In this document: one piece after another, positions 1 through 5,121 of the stretch
Layout: each line of letters starts with the position of its first letter
Position numbering within the stretch: the stretch's first letter is position 1
IMG/VR virus record: IMGVR_UViG_3300045988_009087
Span: 1 to 5,121 of that record
Length of the DNA stretch: 5,121 bases
DNA from: a virus
Direction: 5' to 3' (one strand)
The notes under the pieces: generated by a model
Databases searched by the model: none
Told to the model about the DNA's origin: nothing
What the model saw: the letters and a program-made list of their open reading frames with translations, nothing else
Made by a program: the position numbers and the translations under genes

Positions 1-55
1 GCAGTTCTTTTCATCGAAATCAGTAGAGATTAATCCAGCCTGTAACTTATCCAGA
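1..55. repeat. Terminal direct repeat, copy 1. It is identical to 5067-5121 and marks a circular genome written out linearly.
   Basis: I compared 1-55 (gcagttcttttcatcgaaatcagtagagattaatccagcctgtaacttatccaga) base by base with 5067-5121 and all 55 positions match. A 55-bp end overlap is the usual result of a k=55 de Bruijn assembly closing a circle. Confidence 0.95.
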
Positions 56-252
56 ATCACAGCCATATCACATCCGGGAGCAAAACTGTTAATATATGCG
101 GATATATCAATATCACGAATCTTAGTAAGACATTTACGACCATCTTTACCTACGGATAACTTATACTCTTCACGGGTGGCTGTTCCGGGGTTACTTTCCA
201 CCGGAACAGGATTTTCATATACATCATACATTGTCAACCACTTTTTCGACAT
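1..252 (-). CDS. Internal scaffolding protein VP3, N-terminal 84 codons. The gene wraps the circular junction as complement(join(4800..5066,1..252)), 172 aa in total.
   Basis: I translated the minus strand by hand. The frame of ORF 4800..5066 stays open through 5067-5121 (=1-55) and on to an in-frame TGA at 265-267. The first ATG is at 252-250, preceded by GAGGTGAAGAGT-ATG (an SD with 6-nt spacing). A second ATG lies at 231-229. The N-terminal sequence is MSKKWLTMYDVYENPVPVESNPGTATREEYKLSVGKDGRKCLTKIRDIDISAYINSFAPGCDMAVILDKLQAGLISTDFDEKNC... The later segment ...FRESFSEFPSEVQELFNYDSNLFIQSF resembles the conserved core of gokushovirus/Chlamydia-phage VP3 scaffold proteins, as I recall it. Confidence 0.75.
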   Translation of the reverse strand, partial: MSKKWLTMYDVYENPVPVESNPGTATREEYKLSVGKDGRKCLTKIRDIDISAYINSFAPGCDMAVILDKLQAGLISTDFDEKNC

Positions 253-520
253 ACTCTTCACCTCTCAGAATTTCTGGTACAGGAATAGCAACTTCATTAG
301 CTTCCATCATAACTTTCTCAGCATCCAAAAACATAAGACCATCAAAACGACCAACCAAACGGAACGAATATTCTTTAGGTTCACCAACAGCGATTTGAGC
401 CACAAGGTTCTTGAATACACGTTCTGCCCATTCAACACCAGGCAGAACATAATACTGCATAGCGTTATTACTTACTTCATCATAGAAACAATACACTACA
501 TCAACAATTCCATTTCTCAT
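224..520 (-). CDS. Conserved microvirus non-structural protein, VP5-like (98 aa)
   Basis: The ATG is at 520-518, preceded by AGAGGAGGTATAAGATT-ATG (a GGAGG SD). Its start overlaps the stop of the upstream small basic ORF as ATGA, and its 3' end overlaps the VP3 start by 29 nt. It sits between rep and VP3, where gokushoviruses carry VP5. The pattern VYCFYDEV...A.RVF...EYSFRLVGRFD resembles VP5-type proteins from memory only. Confidence 0.6.
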   Translation of the reverse strand: MRNGIVDVVYCFYDEVSNNAMQYYVLPGVEWAERVFKNLVAQIAVGEPKEYSFRLVGRFDGLMFLDAEKVMMEANEVAIPVPEILRGEEYVEKVVDNV

Positions 521-636
521 AATCTTATACCTCCTCTGTATAACAACGGGCGCACATTCATTTTTTTTGTGCGATCAGCAGTTTTACGAAAAACCTGCCT
601 ATCTTTAGTTTTTGACTTCATAGGTTTACCAGCCAT
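517..636 (-). CDS. Small, highly basic putative DNA-binding/packaging protein (39 aa), analogous to phiX174 J or gokushovirus ORF8. It is below the size cut-off of the supplied ORF track.
   Basis: Hand translation of the minus strand gives MAGKPMKSKTKDRQVFRKTADRTKKMNVRPLLYRGGIRL*. It has 13 K/R against 2 D/E. The ATG at 636-634 follows GAAAGGATGTGTTTTT-ATG (an AAAGGA SD). Its TGA stop at 519-517 overlaps the next gene's ATG as ATGA, which suggests translational coupling. It lies directly downstream of the predicted promoter. Confidence 0.7.
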   Translation of the reverse strand: MAGKPMKSKTKDRQVFRKTADRTKKMNVRPLLYRGGIRL

Positions 637-672
637 AAAAACACATCCTTTCTTTATATTATTTATAAACAT

Positions 673-700
673 ATTATACCATATTAAATTATATTATCAA
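673..700 (-). promoter_or_regulatory. Sigma70/SigA-type promoter with an extended -10, reading on the minus strand into the J-like, VP5-like, VP3 and VP1 genes
   Basis: The minus strand reads TTGATA (700-695), then a 16-nt spacer ending in TGG, then TATAAT (678-673). This gives a 5/6 match at -35, a perfect -10 and a TGn extended -10. It lies in the non-coding gap 8 nt after the rep stop codon and about 37 nt before the next gene's SD. Confidence 0.55.
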
Positions 701-707
701 TAAAAAT

Positions 708-1730
708 TTAAATTTCTGGACGTAAAAGCATACGACTCTTAAATTGTTTTGATTGCTCATCAATCGCCAATTGTTCGAAATAATCTAATTCAGTACTATA
801 TTCTTTAATTTTCTGTAACATCTTAGCAGTCTCAACACGATTTTCAGACATTTTTTCAAATTCTTTCGGATAATCAAGTTCAAAGAACGGGTCAAAGTAT
901 CTAGGAACAGGAGCAGTCAAACCATCAGGCAATTGCACATAACCTGAATCTAACATATCTTTAGCATGAGTATCATAATACTCTTTGCCGATACCGGGCT
1001 TTCTTGACATGCGAGAGAACTCAGGAATAATCCCTAGATCCTCATACACATTATAATCTGTACCTTTATGCTTTTTTAATATATAACGAGCAACATAAGC
1101 ACATGATTTCCAGCATACATCAGCTACAACATTATAACCGTATTTCCAAATTTTGTTAAGAGTAAGCGAATACCAATATTTATTGCCAGAAAAACTATTT
1201 TTTAAAAAAACCAAATCATTTTCAGGCGGTATCCAATCGAATAAAATCAAATGATAGTGTGGACGATGAGTTTGAGAACCATATTCACCAGCAAGGAAAA
1301 AACGAATTTTAATATCTGTCCTTGTAGACTGTTCTTTCCTCAAGCGTTTCATAAAAAGCTGAACATCATCAGGATCTAAAGTATAAGCAAGTTTAGAACC
1401 TCGCTTAATATGATCATCGTCATAAGTCAATGTAACAAAAAATGCAGATTCATGGCATTGCAACTCAAGCATCAAGCGAGTAGCCCAACGACGAGAATAA
1501 TCTAATCTACAACCAATACACTGACCACAGGGAATAAGAAATGTATCAAGTTTACGCCAAGTACCAATATCAAATAAACGATCTGATGTGGTAAACACAT
1601 CTGGTTTAGCACGATTTTGATACACGAATTTATTATCAGTAGTAGCAGACGGAAAAACTTTAACTTTACGTTTACCAGAATCTGTCAAAACATTAGTATA
1701 AGCACCACGCAAAGGATGATAACAAGCCAT
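708..1730 (-). CDS. Replication initiation protein VP4 (rolling-circle HUH endonuclease, phiX174 gene A-like), 340 aa
   Basis: The ATG at 1730 is preceded by AAAGGAGAAAAAT-ATG (a strong SD). Rolling-circle Rep motifs are visible: FFVTLTYDD (motif 1), HRPHYHLILF (the HUH motif, here HYH) and YVARYILKK (a two-tyrosine catalytic motif, as in phiX174 A YVAKY). The microvirus-typical cysteine cluster PCGQCIGCRLDYSRRWA is also present. Confidence 0.93.
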   Translation of the reverse strand: MACYHPLRGAYTNVLTDSGKRKVKVFPSATTDNKFVYQNRAKPDVFTTSDRLFDIGTWRKLDTFLIPCGQCIGCRLDYSRRWATRLMLELQCHESAFFVTLTYDDDHIKRGSKLAYTLDPDDVQLFMKRLRKEQSTRTDIKIRFFLAGEYGSQTHRPHYHLILFDWIPPENDLVFLKNSFSGNKYWYSLTLNKIWKYGYNVVADVCWKSCAYVARYILKKHKGTDYNVYEDLGIIPEFSRMSRKPGIGKEYYDTHAKDMLDSGYVQLPDGLTAPVPRYFDPFFELDYPKEFEKMSENRVETAKMLQKIKEYSTELDYFEQLAIDEQSKQFKSRMLLRPEI

Positions 1731-1750
1731 ATTTTTCTCCTTTCTGATTA

Positions 1751-1996
1751 CTAATGATCTTCATTTTCATTGAACATAGATTTTAATTCTTCAATTCTAT
1801 TAATATTATCAATATTTTCTACAGGAACATAATCAATAATAATACAGAAAAGTCGAAAAACATAATATGGCATACAATTCTTACTATCCCAGTTACGAAC
1901 AGTACCAATAGGAATACCAAATGCACGAGCAAATTCTGACTGACTCATACCAAGCGCACTTCTAATTCCATGAGAAGATATTTTTATTTTTGACAT
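1751..1996 (-). CDS. XRE/Cro-C1-type helix-turn-helix DNA-binding protein (81 aa). This is an accessory gene outside the canonical gokushovirus core.
   Basis: I prefer the start at ATG 1996-1994, which follows GAAAGGAGTTTTAT-ATG (a strong SD), over the track's upstream ATG at 2023, which has no SD. The sequence is MSKIKISSHGIRSALGMSQSEFARAFGIPIGTVRNWDSKNCMPYYVFRLFCIIIDYVP... It fits the pattern IR..LG(M/L)SQ.EFA..(F/L)G(I/V)...TV..W(E/D).....P......L...I...P, typical of short HTH_3-like regulators of the YiaG / MqsA C-terminal / HigA antitoxin style. The tail is acidic (NENEDH). Confidence 0.8.
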   Translation of the reverse strand: MSKIKISSHGIRSALGMSQSEFARAFGIPIGTVRNWDSKNCMPYYVFRLFCIIIDYVPVENIDNINRIEELKSMFNENEDH

Positions 1997-2020
1997 ATAA
2001 AACTCCTTTCTAAAGCAAAT

Positions 2021-2048
2021 CATCCGACAAGCTAACGCTCATCGGATG
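2021..2048. repeat. Inverted repeat / stem-loop 1 in the VP2-HTH non-coding region
   Basis: catccga (2021-2027) pairs perfectly with tcggatg (2042-2048). The 14-nt loop can form a further 3-bp stem (agc/gct) around a 4-nt loop. On the minus strand it is followed by ATTTGCTTT and then the SD of the HTH gene. Confidence 0.7.
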
Positions 2049-2060
2049 GCTATAGTTTGA

Positions 2061-2079
2061 GTTATCCAGAGCGGATAAC
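2061..2079. repeat. Perfect 7-5-7 palindrome / stem-loop 2
   Basis: gttatcc (2061-2067), agagc (2068-2072), ggataac (2073-2079). The arms are exact reverse complements. Confidence 0.75.
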
Positions 2080-2097
2080 TGCTTTTGGTGTCACTCC

Positions 2098-2126
2098 GAC
2101 CAGTTACATCAAGTAAGTAACTGGTC
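2098..2126. repeat. Stem-loop 3, with a perfect 10-bp stem and a 9-nt loop. This is the strongest hairpin in the genome.
   Basis: gaccagttac (2098-2107) pairs perfectly with gtaactggtc (2117-2126). The loop is atcaagtaa on the plus strand and TTACTTGAT on the viral-sense minus strand. It begins 11 nt after the VP2 stop codon. Confidence 0.8.
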
Positions 2127-2136
2127 TGCGTATCGG

Positions 2137-2808
2137 CTACCCGAAAATTTTGCCAAGCAATCCAGCAGCTGAACCAGCAAGACTACCAAGAAGACTCATA
2201 TTCTGACCACGCTTTGTAGTCTTAGAATTGACATTGGTAGCATAACGAGAAGCGCCAGAACTCTTATTACTAGAATACTTAGTACTAGCATAACCCATCT
2301 GAGAAGCATAACGAGATGCGGCAGAACTCATATTAGCCGCATAACGAGAAGCGTTGGCAGAATTAAGACTAGCGAAGCGAGAAGCCTCAGCTTGAATATT
2401 AGCAGCTTGTAAAGCTGTAGCTTGATTAATACGAGCAGCTTCCAAAGTAGCATCACGTTGCATCTGAGCAATAGCTTGTTGATTAGCATTATTCTGCTGA
2501 TTAACAATAATACTTGTCAATGCAGGAACAACGGAATTATCAGTTTCACCTTTGGCACCGGATGCAGTCGCACCGGATCCAGTTTGAGCACCAGAACCGC
2601 CAGCACTAAGAACAGGATTAAGCCCTGCTTTTTGAAGATCGAGAACCTCTCTTTGATGAGCGGTTGCAGACTGTTGAGCTTGCCAGTCTCTGTTTTTTTG
2701 TGCTTCGGAAGCATTGAAACGCATTTCTTCACGAGCAAATTCTTGAGACTTAGCAGTATTTTGCGAAGCAATGTTGGAAAGCTGTGCAGTAAGTTGATCA
2801 GTATTCAT
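2137..2808 (-). CDS. Minor capsid / DNA pilot protein VP2 (223 aa)
   Basis: I prefer ATG 2808-2806, which follows GAAAGGCGATACT-ATG (an SD), over the track's GTG at 2859. The N-terminal region EEMRFNASEAQKNRDWQAQQSATAHQREVLDLQKAGLNPVL matches the hallmark gokushovirus VP2 motif (AHQRE..DL..AGLNP.L). A Gly/Ser/Ala linker follows, then a Q/A-rich helical region, then 11-residue repeats, then a C-terminal glycine-zipper-like hydrophobic tail LLGSLAGSAAGLLGKIFG. Confidence 0.88.
   Translation of the reverse strand: MNTDQLTAQLSNIASQNTAKSQEFAREEMRFNASEAQKNRDWQAQQSATAHQREVLDLQKAGLNPVLSAGGSGAQTGSGATASGAKGETDNSVVPALTSIIVNQQNNANQQAIAQMQRDATLEAARINQATALQAANIQAEASRFASLNSANASRYAANMSSAASRYASQMGYASTKYSSNKSSGASRYATNVNSKTTKRGQNMSLLGSLAGSAAGLLGKIFG
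2218..2382 (-). repeat. Five tandem 11-codon (33-nt) repeats inside VP2
   Basis: The protein register is SRFASLNSANA / SRYAANMSSAA / SRYASQMGYAS / TKYSSNKSSGA / SRYATNVNSKT. At the DNA level the core gcataacgaga(a/t)gcg recurs at about 2239, 2305 and 2339, with spacings of 66 and 33-34 nt. Confidence 0.8.
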
Positions 2809-2858
2809 AGTATCGCCTTTCGTGGGGAAGTAGTACAAGCCATTCAGCCTGTAAACCA

Positions 2859-2880
2859 CCTTTTTTTATACAAAAAAAGG
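2859..2880. repeat. A/T-rich hairpin in the VP1-VP2 intergenic region
   Basis: ccttttttt (2859-2867), atac, aaaaaaagg (2872-2880). This is a perfect 9-bp stem made of 2 GC and 7 AT pairs, about 50 nt upstream of the VP2 start on the minus strand. Confidence 0.6.
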
Positions 2881-2920
2881 AAGTTGACAGACTGCCTGTC
2901 TCGTACTAAATAGTAATCAA

Positions 2921-2942
2921 GGACAGATGTGATCATCTGTCC
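2921..2942 (-). terminator. Candidate intrinsic (probably leaky) terminator downstream of VP1
   Basis: A perfect 9-bp stem, ggacagatg (2921-2929) with catctgtcc (2934-2942), encloses a 4-nt loop. On the minus strand it is followed by TTGATTACTATTT (T-rich but interrupted). It begins 48 nt after the VP1 stop codon. Confidence 0.4.
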
Positions 2943-2990
2943 CTTCGTGACATATAATTAAGCATGAACATTACACAATGTTGTACGATA

Positions 2991-4703
2991 TTACAGAGTG
3001 TGCAAGCCTGGAATAGAATGTACTGGCATAACTCTGGTGGTCAAATTCTTGACATAGAAATCACCAAAAATCTGGTCAGCCAACTTCGAAGTAACAGCCA
3101 GTGTCCTATCCACATTCGTCTTATCTTCCTGAATCCATGCACTACTTAACGTAGGCTTCTTAGCATAATAATCTGCAAAATGCCAAGATTGTAAACTATT
3201 AGTAATACCAGATCGCATCTCACCAGTTACAATAGAAGTCTTATATCTGTAATCAGCCCAGGCTTCCTGATAGCCGAAAACATTATCAAGACTGCCAAAA
3301 CCGTCATTCTCATAATAGATTTCACGAGAATATATCGGCTGTTCACCAATGTTAGCCAAAATCGGAAAATAGTAGTCAAGACGATTCTTACGAGACCACA
3401 TACGCTGTAAGCCTTGCTGATATGTATGATTATATCTTGCACACATCACACCAATCACATAACCGTGTTCCGTAAAAGACTTCGTGAAACTATTATCTGT
3501 ATTAGAAGTCAGAGACATAGCCGCGGTAGTACCAAGCGGAGTCTCACCGGACTCTGACTGCTGAACAATCTGATGAACATTGATTCTTGTACGATTAGCA
3601 GACAATAACTCAGGTCTCTGTAATCTTCCATCGGGAGATATAACACCAAAATGACCTCGAAGCAACTCTACATAACGAGATCCAGAGCGAGCATCCGTTT
3701 CAAGCATCTGCTGAGTAGCGAAAGCTAAGCGAAGACTATTCACCGTCAATGGATCAGAAGCAGACGGATCAGCATAAAGATTATTAAAATAAATTCCAGA
3801 ATCATCTGCAATCTGACTATCAAGCGGAAATTCAGTAGTACCAAAATTAAGAGAAGTATAACTTTCAGGACGAGAAGGCAACCGAGGAACATTAGAAGCA
3901 GCATACATAGAACGATATTTTCCTTCAGTAATAGGATAACCGTTCACATTAACAAGAGACACAGCGGGATGCTTACCAGTCATACTAACTTTATCACGAG
4001 TAACCACAGGAATATCGCCAAAAATACTTGAAATCGTCACATCATCACCCTTTTGAGGTTGAGGAAGCGCGCTGGTAAAATAATCATGCAACTTATTAAC
4101 TTTAAGTAACTTACCACCTTTGGCAGAATTATTCTTATCGAACTCTACATTACCATCATCAATATCAACCAATACCTCATCCTGAAGATTCTCATCACGG
4201 AACCACTCATTCCAGATCAAGTTATATGCATTGATCGGAAGCCTACTTATAGACAAAACACCATCGGGATTAATTGGAACACCGAAATAGTCAAGCAGAG
4301 ATTTCTGCAAAACGGTCTTATCAGACTTAGAGAACGTCAACTGTGGAACCTGATATTCTACATCAGAAGTCCACGCAGAAGTGGATTCTCCCATGAATTC
4401 TTTCCAATGCGTCCAGCAAAGTCTGGACGGAACAAAGAAGTAATACATATCAAGAAAAAGATCATCCATAGGAGGTGTGATAAGCGTTTGTAATCTAGTT
4501 ACGAAAGAAGTCTCTACATCGAACGTATCACCGGGTAGAACCTCATCAAGATAAAACGGCACTAAGTCACCAACATTAAACGAAGTCTTGATCGAAGACG
4601 ATCTATCAAACCGGGAACGAGGTCTTTCCAGATCGCTCTTATACGTTGAAAAATAACTGTTAGCATCAATCAGATTTTTTGAAAATGCCAACTTAATCAC
4701 CAT
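2991..4703 (-). CDS. Major capsid protein VP1 (phiX174 F-like, Microviridae jelly-roll capsid), 570 aa from ATG 4703
   Basis: This is the longest ORF. The N-terminal block RPRSRFDRSSSIKTSFNVGDLVPFYLDEVLPGDTFDVETSFVTRL...YYFFVPSRLCW is the signature opening of gokushovirus VP1 / phage F capsid proteins. The start is uncertain. The track's start at 4724 is a TTG with no SD. ATG 4703 directly abuts the SD-like AGAAAGG (zero spacing). In-frame GTG 4700 and TTG 4691 are alternatives. Confidence 0.93.
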   Translation of the reverse strand: MVIKLAFSKNLIDANSYFSTYKSDLERPRSRFDRSSSIKTSFNVGDLVPFYLDEVLPGDTFDVETSFVTRLQTLITPPMDDLFLDMYYFFVPSRLCWTHWKEFMGESTSAWTSDVEYQVPQLTFSKSDKTVLQKSLLDYFGVPINPDGVLSISRLPINAYNLIWNEWFRDENLQDEVLVDIDDGNVEFDKNNSAKGGKLLKVNKLHDYFTSALPQPQKGDDVTISSIFGDIPVVTRDKVSMTGKHPAVSLVNVNGYPITEGKYRSMYAASNVPRLPSRPESYTSLNFGTTEFPLDSQIADDSGIYFNNLYADPSASDPLTVNSLRLAFATQQMLETDARSGSRYVELLRGHFGVISPDGRLQRPELLSANRTRINVHQIVQQSESGETPLGTTAAMSLTSNTDNSFTKSFTEHGYVIGVMCARYNHTYQQGLQRMWSRKNRLDYYFPILANIGEQPIYSREIYYENDGFGSLDNVFGYQEAWADYRYKTSIVTGEMRSGITNSLQSWHFADYYAKKPTLSSAWIQEDKTNVDRTLAVTSKLADQIFGDFYVKNLTTRVMPVHSIPGLHTL

Positions 4704-4779
4704 CCTTTCTGTAATCTGATGCAATCAACACTAAACTATAAATATTAAGTCCAAGATCCATAAGGATCAGGAAAAACAT
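4693..4779 (-). CDS. Hypothetical 28-aa hydrophobic peptide ORF in the VP3-VP1 spacer (weak call)
   Basis: Hand translation gives MFFLILMDLGLNIYSLVLIASDYRKDGD*. The ATG is at 4779-4777 and the TAA at 4695-4693. It overlaps the VP1 ATG by 11 nt. The only SD-like element (GGAAGG, 4798-4793) is 13 nt from the ATG, which is long. It could be a chance ORF in T-rich spacer. Confidence 0.2.
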   Translation of the reverse strand: MFFLILMDLGLNIYSLVLIASDYRKDGD

Positions 4780-4799
4780 AGCAAAAAGTAAACCTTCCA

Positions 4800-5121
4800 C
4801 TATTCATCACCAACTTTCTTACCAGAGCCAGAATCCGGCTTAGGATCCGGCTTAGGATCCGGCTTAGGATCCGGCTTAGGATCCGGCTTACGAAGAGAAT
4901 CAAGAGCAGAATCGAGCGAACCATCGAGAAAACTCTGAATAAACAGATTAGAATCATAGTTAAACAACTCCTGAACCTCAGACGGAAACTCAGAGAAACT
5001 CTCACGGAACTGCCTTGTCTTCTGCATTGCATCCACAACATCTTTCGGCATCATAGACAGATCCACGCAGTTCTTTTCATCGAAATCAGTAGAGATTAAT
5101 CCAGCCTGTAACTTATCCAGA
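4800..5121 (-). CDS. Internal scaffolding protein VP3, C-terminal part. The true unit is 4800-5066. The frame stays open through 5067-5121, which duplicates 1-55.
   Basis: The TAG stop is at 4802-4800. The track's 'M' at 5066 is a GTG inside a longer open frame, not the real start. The sequence is ...CVDLSMMPKDVVDAMQKTRQFRESFSEFPSEVQELFNYDSNLFIQSFLDGSLDSALDSLRKPDPKPDPKPDPKPDPKPDSGSGKKVGDE*. Confidence 0.8.
   Translation of the reverse strand, partial: LDKLQAGLISTDFDEKNCVDLSMMPKDVVDAMQKTRQFRESFSEFPSEVQELFNYDSNLFIQSFLDGSLDSALDSLRKPDPKPDPKPDPKPDPKPDSGSGKKVGDE
4833..4890 (-). repeat. Perfect 12-bp tandem repeat (about 4.8 copies) encoding the (KPDP)n tail of VP3
   Basis: The unit atccggcttagg occurs at 4833-4844, 4845-4856, 4857-4868 and 4869-4880, plus 10 of 12 nt at 4881-4890, with no mismatch. 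On the coding strand it reads AAG CCG GAT CCT. The repeat creates four GGATCC sites at 4843, 4855, 4867 and 4879. Confidence 0.95.
5067..5121. repeat. Terminal direct repeat, copy 2 (identical to 1-55)
   Basis: See copy 1. The match is exact over 55 nt. Confidence 0.95.

Follow-up and report, generated by a model that had tools for sequence, protein, structure and literature searches.

The stretch of DNA analysed here (positions 1 to 5,121 of IMG/VR virus record IMGVR_UViG_3300045988_009087; all 5,121 nucleotides (nt) together are referred to as the window) is a complete circular gokushovirus genome of 5066 nt, in which an exact 55-nt terminal direct repeat (1-55 is identical to 5067-5121) represents an assembly overlap. 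All of its identified genes lie on the minus strand. The element in question is a hairpin, H1 (2098-2126, minus strand), located in a 140-nt non-coding island (1997-2136) that is bounded upstream by the stop codon of the VP2 gene (2137-2859, minus strand; a DNA pilot protein with matches to PHROG pilot-protein families) and downstream by a gene for an 81-residue helix-turn-helix (HTH) protein (1751-1996, minus strand). The HTH protein matches PHROG regulator families and gives weak HTH matches, every one of which is under the Pfam cut-offs, and its gene is an accessory insertion that is missing from the closest relatives. The length of 140 nt is valid if the HTH open reading frame (ORF) begins at the ATG at 1996, with GGAG at 2003-2006; an in-frame ATG at 2023 falls within the third hairpin of the island. 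The VP4 gene (708-1730, minus strand) encodes a rolling-circle replication initiator (Pfam PF23343, E = 2.6e-20; PHROG 942, replication initiation protein, E = 1.2e-108). Its translation contains an HUH motif (HYHLILF) and two tyrosines four residues apart (YVARY), which is the YxxxY spacing of Tyr343 and Tyr347 in protein A of phiX174 (bioRxiv 10.64898/2026.07.25.740675). The genome that bears H1 itself codes for an HUH initiator, as is expected of a hairpin-loop HUH origin. The remaining genes, also on the minus strand, are those for the VP1 capsid protein (2991-4724), a VP5-like ORF (224-520) and the VP3 scaffold gene, which runs across the junction of the genome ends.

The island contains three hairpins, as the preliminary description of this DNA had stated, and its coordinates, stem and loop for H1 were accurate. 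The H1 stem is a perfect 10-bp helix formed by 2098-2107 and 2117-2126 (arms GACCAGTTAC and GTAACTGGTC), and its 9-nt loop reads ATCAAGTAA on the plus strand and TTACTTGAT on the minus strand, which is the gene strand. The 3' part of this loop, read directly on the minus strand, is the heptamer ACTTGAT (2108-2114). Starting 4 nt past the 3' arm is a TGACAC box (2088-2093, minus strand), which is part of GAGTGACACC at 2087-2096. The second hairpin, H2, follows 7 nt past the box and its A-run and is an 8-5-8 palindrome at 2060-2080 (minus strand), rather than the 7-5-7 repeat at 2061-2079 reported initially. The third hairpin, H3, is where it had been placed (2021-2048, minus strand), shortly ahead of the next gene's ribosome-binding site, but on the minus strand it takes the form of about 12 pairs, some of them G-T, closed by a 4-nt loop, rather than a 7-bp stem with a 14-nt loop, and it is followed by the tail ATTTGCTTTA. 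H2 also holds GAGCGGATAAC at 2068-2078 on the plus strand, an 11-nt identity with the core of the lac operator; this is almost certainly a chance likeness, although LacI binding or cross-hybridisation would be possible if the fragment were cloned in E. coli.

Folded as single-stranded DNA (ssDNA), the island is far more stable than its shuffled versions on either strand: the minus strand gives -27.7 kcal/mol (z = -6.36) and the plus strand -24.9 kcal/mol (z = -4.60), and none of 200 shuffles was as good in either case. Apart from H1, the whole window contains no perfect stem of at least 10 bp with a short loop. A promoter scan found no sigma-70-like site on the gene strand within the island, and an Rfam search of the whole window gave nothing relevant, its one chance match being below the gathering score and elsewhere in the window.

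The preliminary description treated the island as one unit, but H1 alone is found family-wide, with H2 and H3 kept just in the clade to which the window belongs. A megablast search with all 5121 bases against 50,697 phage records returned just a short piece of VP1 and the 44 bases at 2083-2126, which are 97.7% identical in Dulem virus 137. With the island as the query, a sensitive blastn search retrieved 339 microvirus records from many animals and environments. Among the 60 matches listed, essentially H1 and its 3' flank alone were covered, and 59 of the 60 lay in unannotated DNA. H1 is the sole stretch of the genome with nucleotide similarity to distant, otherwise unalignable microviruses.

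We then scanned IMG/VR with the pattern ACTTGATN{9,13}GAGTGACAC, which fixes the loop and the box and leaves both stem arms free. At least 120 stretches matched, and 113 of the 120 listed came from contigs that encode VP1 and/or VP4 and are 2-9 kb long, with nearly all of them at 4-6 kb. In all listed matches the 5' arm was complementary to the 3' arm despite the differing sequences (examples of 5' arms are GACCAGTTAC, GCACAGTTAC, GCCAAGTA, CCGCATATA, GCCAATTAC, CACACAGTTAAC and GCCCTTATA). When applied to 596 Gb of bacterial genomes, the pattern found for the most part chance matches without a stem, and hence the pattern does not by itself create the hairpin. Six bacterial matches did have stems of 9-13 bp; five of these adjoin VP1 and/or VP4 genes, and around the sixth (L264) no VP1 or VP4 match was found within the 8 kb examined. 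In a MAFFT alignment of 91 distinct sequences, 70.8% of the cells were paired, compared to 34-42% when the partner was slid, and changes on both sides of a pair were present in 177 cells, compared to 54-99. None of 500 shuffles reached the observed values.

A covariance model built from this first alignment, that of the IMG/VR pattern matches, recovers the H1 of the window with 61.8 bits (E = 2.4e-16). For a sample independent of the motif, 80 IMG/VR contigs were chosen by VP1 alignment alone; searches of IMG/VR with a single protein yielded 11 loci for VP4 and 15 for VP1, so that the VP1 alignment was needed for a broad sample. The covariance model matched about 50 of the 80 contigs with E < 1e-4, and a descriptor scan found that, of the 74 distinct contigs encoding VP1 as well as VP4, 62 carry the module (the hairpin with its box), with loop variants that retain CTTG. 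In these motif-independent contigs, both-side changes were seen at all 12 of the 12 pairs, 87.9% of the cells were paired (24-40% when slid) and the covariation score was 0.51 (0.04-0.06 when slid), all three values being taken from an alignment fitted to the model. The stems are therefore maintained by compensatory changes in relatives, which is what had been anticipated for a functional hairpin, and the same is true of the conservation anticipated for the loop. Its end, where it was not conditioned on, reads YCTTG(A/T)T across the subfamily, cultured reference phages included, with ACTTGAT by far the commonest form and TCTTGAT, CCTTGAT, ACTAGAT, ACTTGTT and CCTTGTC as variants. After the stem come three variable bases and then TGACAC(C), which in the motif-independent contigs is also seen as NNNTGACAC(C). 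Stems of this type are 7 to 18 bp long.

There is one copy of the module per genome, terminal redundancy aside. Nine contigs (L056, L058, L065, L086, L088, L191, L205, L208 and L225) carry two identical hairpins one genome length apart and represent terminal redundancy or concatemers, L208 being about 1.4 genome lengths long. Several features recur around the hairpin in part of the genomes. GTCAC, the inverted partner of the box, is found no more than 35 nt downstream in 15 of 111 instances, compared to 2.3% of control windows, and is thus an enriched but minority feature. Loci with a GAGTGAC box (e.g. L066, L084, L095, L129 and L136, and also L014 and L150) frequently have the partner GTCACTC, either downstream or just upstream of the hairpin, and in the latter position it makes the main stem longer. 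In many loci, the 15-30 nt directly 5' of the H1-type hairpin form a short hairpin of their own, rich in G+C and with a loop of 4 nt (e.g. L020, L024, L025, L029, L071 and L074; examples are GCCCCGGAGGGGC, GTCGCAAAGCGAC, CGCGTCGTAGACGCG and CCCCTCGAAGAGGGG). The window has no such preceding hairpin because VP2 ends there.

H2 and H3 behave differently from H1. In the clade of the window (VP1 at least 77% identical), a hairpin is always present at the H2 position after the box and the A-run, but its sequence differs from genome to genome (AGTTGT.CGCG-CTA-CGCG.ACAACT, a CGCC/GGCG version and TGTCCGTC-GYA-GACGGACA), and a second and sometimes a third hairpin come after it. This layout is not shared by more distant genomes, and therefore H2 and H3 are clade-level, lineage-specific accessory hairpins. 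An accessory origin element, a complementary-strand signal and a terminator are all candidate roles for H2.

The inverted repeats had also been proposed to be double-stranded operators for the adjacent HTH protein, and a site for some other dimeric DNA-binding protein would be a variant of the same idea. The palindromes do adjoin the HTH gene, and H2 is a perfect 8-5-8 repeat. However, the relatives L003 and L143 (the latter the same as L061) have no HTH gene, their VP4 gene coming directly after the hairpins, and both of them nevertheless keep H1 and H2. H3 is present in L002 and L143 and absent from L003, so that L143 retains all three hairpins with no HTH gene beside them. H1 itself is found in hundreds of genomes that lack an HTH gene, which contradicts the operator reading for H1. 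Furthermore, the arms change and yet stay complementary, and what is preserved is therefore a folded strand and not a fixed protein site. We give the operator explanation very little credence.

Transcription termination is the next role to be considered. In this case, H1 would be a terminator or attenuator after the upstream gene, and its conservation would be due to RNA structure. H1 is located right behind the VP2 stop codon and folds well as RNA, and in a clade in which the module is inverted (see below) the coding strand shows the hairpin and then a T-run directly after the VP4 stop codon. On the other hand, in the usual orientation H1 is followed by GAGTGACACC and not by a T-run. A scan for terminator-like structures called H3 (12 pairs, 6 of them G-C, with the tail ATTTGCTTTA) and, on the antisense strand only, H2, but it did not call H1. 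A terminator requires neither a conserved loop nor a 3' box, and the genes flanking the hairpin vary among genomes. Hence, termination is a highly improbable explanation for H1. H3, with its T-rich tail, looks like an intrinsic terminator or attenuator and is probably a leaky terminator between the structural genes and the HTH-VP4 genes.

The arrangement of genes around the module is indeed variable. It is located between VP2 and HTH-VP4 in the window, and between VP3 and VP4, between VP3 and VP1, or after VP4 in other genomes. In all of these arrangements it lies in non-coding DNA, usually adjoining VP4, and the median distance from it to the VP4 start downstream is 230 nt. Cultured phages carry it on the coding strand as well. 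In Chp2 it spans 2904-2941 (CTAGCGTATAACAG-TCTACTTGAT-CTGTTATACGCTAG-GTGATAGC, the loop being TCTACTTGAT), in phiMH2K about 3298-3335 (GTTCGGCTAC-GGACCCTACTTGTTGTAA-GTAGCCGAAC, with a loop that includes CTACTTGTT) and in SpV4 512-544 (TGGGGCATAT-ATTACTTGTTATA-ATATGCCCCA-TTGACGAC, the loop being ATTACTTGTTATA). The box is degenerate in Chp2 (GTGATAGC) and SpV4 (TTGACGAC), and in phiMH2K no TGACAC box was seen, TCACAG being found instead. An E. coli enterogokushovirus prophage has CCTGGCACAGTG-CCTTACTTGAT-GTAACTGTGCCAGG-TGACACC, again on the coding strand (within 4988-5038 of locus L353). In all four of these genomes we take the coding strand to be the packaged strand. The hosts of phages with this same loop include Chlamydia, Spiroplasma, Bdellovibrio, E. 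coli and gut bacteria.

The prophages bear on a further explanation, namely that H1 is a XerC/XerD (dif-like) recombination site that serves to integrate the phage or to resolve dimers. In its favour, H1 has the form of an imperfect palindrome around a central spacer, and gokushoviruses can integrate via dif motifs in non-coding DNA, EC6098 being integrated by XerCD (PMC7062461). The scan of bacterial genomes returned two likely prophages on large contigs, and flanking dif-like repeats were found for one of them, L240. The E. coli prophage described above (L353, E. coli E9 chromosome, NZ_CP104500.1) is an enterogokushovirus beside hipBA, with its hairpin between a VP3-like gene and VP1; an exact dif core (3315-3335) is found at the prophage edge, 1.7 kb from the hairpin. 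L240 (a 626-kb contig of a Balneolaceae metagenome-assembled genome) holds an integrated gokushovirus of 4594 nt, whose hairpin is internal and about 320 nt from the flanking dif-like direct repeats (867-904 and 5461-5498; TTATCCTATAA-TTTATA-TTATGTAAAGT, 89% identical). This prophage suggests XerCD-type lysogeny outside Enterobacteria. In both L353 and L240 the dif site is separate from the hairpin, in agreement with the XerCD integration of EC6098 (PMC7062461), and the two together contradict a dif-like role for H1. In the window, no dif-like site (11-6-11, with a TTATGTTAAAT-like arm) was found beyond chance. This explanation can be virtually dismissed.

A comparison of the loop with phiX174 shows what its conserved letters correspond to. 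The viral-strand synthesis origin of phiX174 is annotated at 4306 in RefSeq NC_001422, i.e. CAACTTG|ATA, and cleavage takes place between G4305 and A4306 (bioRxiv 10.64898/2026.07.25.740675). Both sources bear out the nick site ACTTG^AT that the preliminary description had given. The H1 loop, TTACTTGAT, is identical to the phiX174 decamer at 7 of its 10 bases. The window contains four copies of ACTTGAT, all on the minus strand, where 1.2 are expected on both strands together, and 7 of 200 shuffles reach four. Two of the other copies are in VP4 and one is in VP1. A further explanation is that replication really starts within VP4, at AAACTTGATAC (about 1543-1553), just as the phiX174 origin is within the initiator gene, and that H1 is unrelated to it. 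The copy at 1545-1551 even shares AACTTGATA with phiX174. However, all three intragenic copies change in close relatives, synonymous sites included (CAGCTAGAT, AAGTTGGAA, GAGCGTGAC and AATCTGATT), and none of them is within a hairpin, whereas the copy in the loop is invariant in these relatives even though stems change (that of L142, for instance, differs). An origin within VP4 is accordingly very hard to uphold.

With its covarying stem, conserved loop, single copy, non-coding position, phiX174 heptamer and association with strand bias (see below), H1 together with the TGACAC box is probably the viral-strand rolling-circle origin of gokushoviruses, which VP4 would nick after the G of ACTTG|AT. 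Stem covariation, loop conservation and the lack of conservation of the intragenic copies all favour what had been the central idea from the outset, namely that the 10-bp hairpin displays a phiX174-type nick sequence in its loop and marks the origin. By analogy with phiX174, the predicted nick is between G2110 and A2109 of the minus strand. VP4 is the likely reader of H1, as it is the only conserved sequence-specific DNA enzyme of gokushoviruses, and the box is a candidate recognition element for this Rep protein. In the supercoiled replicative form, the inverted repeat would extrude, or the region would melt, so that the loop TTACTTG|AT becomes single-stranded. VP4, an HUH endonuclease with two catalytic tyrosines that is homologous to phiX174 protein A, would dock on the stem and the TGACAC box, cut past the G and remain bound to the 5' end, while a host polymerase would extend the 3'-OH. 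After one round, the hairpin regenerated on the displaced strand would be cut and rejoined, and the circle thus released would be packaged.

A rather different function would also place a hairpin on the packaged strand. H1 could be a complementary-strand origin that recruits host priming (the PriA primosome, primase or RNA polymerase) for the conversion to double-stranded DNA. H1 is a strong ssDNA hairpin in non-coding DNA, and it is oriented in line with the strand on which mutations show a bias of the single-strand type, as described below. Islands of several hairpins are typical of such origins, and strong structure is seen in the 90 nt upstream of H1 over 186 genomes (mean z = -3.0, compared to -1.2 downstream). 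Such a role was proposed by Olo Ndela et al. for other conserved microvirus hairpins (PMC9865509), and in phiX174 the minus origin overlaps a terminator hairpin (bioRxiv 10.64898/2026.07.25.740675). However, the conserved letters are those of the phiX174 Rep nick site and of no known priming signal, and it is the stem sequence that is free to vary while the loop and the box are fixed. In addition, the same loop is found in phages of very distant hosts, whereas host priming signals differ among bacterial groups. This argument is indirect, but it points to a phage-encoded reader rather than to host priming proteins. Taken together, we regard a complementary-strand origin as unlikely, though worth keeping in mind.

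The orientation of the module provides another line of evidence. The preliminary description assumed that the packaged strand has the sense of the mRNA. This cannot be taken for granted in all gokushoviruses: of 185 distinct genomes with the module, 141 have it on the coding strand and 44, about a quarter, on the antisense strand. Among several inverted lineages is a large clade of gut genomes of 5.3-6 kb, such as KT264790 (L019, 3640-3700), in which the antisense hairpin is 34-78 nt past the VP4 stop codon. In L171, L172, L175, L182 and L212 the antisense hairpin is near the VP4 start, and further antisense modules are found in L021/L208, L095, L127, L184 and L243, as well as in L035 and L041. 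The antisense ORFs of KT264790 have no PHROG family match, whereas a sense ORF at 5209-5511 does, and no ambisense layout was seen in this genome. CTTG is found within a stem arm in 19 of 33 distinct inverted hairpins (e.g. L019, L022, L171, L175 and L212; arms GCCAAGTA/TACTTGGC and CACAAG/CTTGTG) and in none of 110 in the usual orientation, and these inverted hairpins therefore present CTTG on the coding strand too.

An origin or a priming site must be on the strand that is displaced and packaged. Hence, either the inverted clades speak against a strand-specific role or it is the antisense strand that they package, and the latter predicts that the strand bias of recent C>T changes is reversed in them. 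Base composition was considered as a marker of the packaged strand and rejected. The mean T-A skew at 4-fold sites of the coding strand is +0.31 in the usual orientation and -0.53 in the inverted clade, but A-richness is also seen in about 30% of the usually oriented genomes, in which the skew ranges from -0.63 to +0.85. As composition is not diagnostic for this reason, we used polarised recent substitutions instead. Genomes were grouped at 82% nucleotide identity or above, singletons were polarised by the majority state and per-site rates were calculated on the coding strand.

The ratio of pyrimidine to purine transitions was 1.06, 1.20, 1.44, 1.49, 1.59, 1.68, 1.71, 1.75 and 4.19 in the nine groups with the usual orientation and 0.65, 0.79 and 0.93 in the three inverted groups. 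The two orientations are thus split perfectly, with values above 1 in 9 of 9 and below 1 in 3 of 3 groups, and the chance of such a split is 1 in 220. The coding strand is A-rich in five of the nine groups with the usual orientation. Pooled rates at 4-fold sites were 0.244 for C>T and 0.133 for G>A in the usual orientation, compared to 0.208 and 0.426 in the inverted one, and by tree-based parsimony the C>T/G>A ratio was 2.38 in the group to which the window belongs, compared to 0.61 in the large inverted clade. These findings give moderate support to the notion that it is the strand with the motif that is single-stranded for part of the time, and they argue against roles that are independent of orientation. 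It is conceivable, although we hold this only tentatively and lean slightly against it, that gokushovirus evolution has seen several inversions of the origin module with respect to all genes and that the resulting phages package the strand complementary to the mRNA, because nicking determines which strand is displaced and encapsidated. Such phages would be the first Microviridae of negative sense.

Several points weigh against H1 being the viral-strand origin. The heptamer is weak evidence on its own, as ACTTGAT is not rare, with four copies in the window. The position of the predicted nick is taken from phiX174, whose origin is neither a hairpin nor intergenic, and the analogy is limited to the 7-nt core. 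By the strict descriptor, 12 of the 74 contigs with both VP1 and VP4 lack the module, although some of them have variants that can be seen by eye and some are fragments. The antisense module in 44 of 185 genomes is compatible with an origin only if it is the antisense strand that these phages package, and no such case is known to have been reported. The strand asymmetry fits viral-strand and complementary-strand roles alike and does not separate them. Its separation at 4-fold sites is not clean, as three groups with the usual orientation have C>T/G>A ratios of 0.57, 0.60 and 0.93. Finally, the three inverted groups amount to at most two or three independent events, probably in two lineages.

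A few observations concern other parts of these genomes. The C-terminal part of the VP3-like scaffold protein (4800-5066 of the window, minus strand) contains a tandem peptide repeat, (KPDP)x5. The VP1-VP2 intergenic region (2860-2990) holds a terminator-like stem of 11 pairs (2919-2944, minus strand) and one of 6 pairs (2886-2900, minus strand), and a long imperfect inverted repeat at 2831-2908 reaches into it. One public IMG/VR record (L002) has, at about 4880-4937 near the contig end, the Nextera adapter CTGTCTCTTATACACATCT followed by its inverted copy, which is an assembly artefact.

No other microviruses are as widespread in gut, marine and soil viromes as gokushoviruses. In the searchable literature, which does not include the subscription-journal papers on Chp1, SpV4 and phiMH2K, we found no description of a mapped gokushovirus origin or of the H1 motif. 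The signature of about 50 nt (a stem, YCTTG(A/T)T, the second arm and TGACAC) provides a defined substrate for VP4 biochemistry and a natural point from which to number the coordinates of thousands of metagenomic genomes. It is also a highly specific nucleotide marker of gokushoviruses, given that 113 of the 120 listed pattern matches in IMG/VR are microviral, and replicons or packaging vectors based on gokushoviruses could be built with it as the minimal cis element. The inverted clades, in turn, raise the question of whether genome polarity is fixed in Microviridae.

Among known systems, the combination of a variable stem with a fixed loop motif is shared by the origins of geminiviruses, circoviruses and nanoviruses, with their nonanucleotide TAATATT|AC, and by plasmid double-strand origins of the pT181 and pMV158 types. 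Like the cut in this nonanucleotide, the one predicted for H1 would be separated from the 3' arm by 2 nt, and an adjacent conserved element, possibly for initiator binding, is likewise common to H1 and these HUH stem-loop origins. H1 differs from them in its loop sequence, in its phiX174-like two-tyrosine initiator, which belongs to a different clade, and in its single TGACAC box, no iterated repeats having been seen. The PriA site of phiX174 (a hairpin in the F-G intergenic region), the oric of G4 and the minus origin of M13 resemble the island in being clusters of intergenic hairpins on the packaged strand. However, they are read by host proteins and are host-specific, whereas the H1 loop is kept from phages of Chlamydia to those of E. 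coli. The hairpins of roodoodoo- and reekeekeeviruses (Olo Ndela et al. 2022, PMC9865509) are similar to H1 in their location between the capsid and Rep genes, their compensatory changes and their conserved loop. They differ in that they were described for other clades and regarded as possible minus-strand signals, and in the accessible description no link to the phiX174 nick sequence is reported.

The closest counterpart is the viral-strand origin of phiX174 (Bullavirinae), a member of the same family with a homologous two-tyrosine HUH initiator and an identical nick core, ACTTG|AT. A second conserved element is located 3' of the nick in both, namely the recognition sequence in phiX174 and the TGACAC box here. 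The phiX174 origin is a linear 30-nt sequence within gene A that has an AT-rich spacer and no hairpin, whereas H1 presents the core in the loop of a covarying hairpin that is always non-coding. The rest of the 30-mer cannot be aligned, and downstream of the predicted nick H1 has the stem arm and TGACAC rather than ATATTAATAACACTATAGACCAC, so that it is not a full intragenic origin of the phiX174 type. If H1 is indeed the origin, the common ACTTG|AT core would link the origins of two otherwise unalignable subfamilies.

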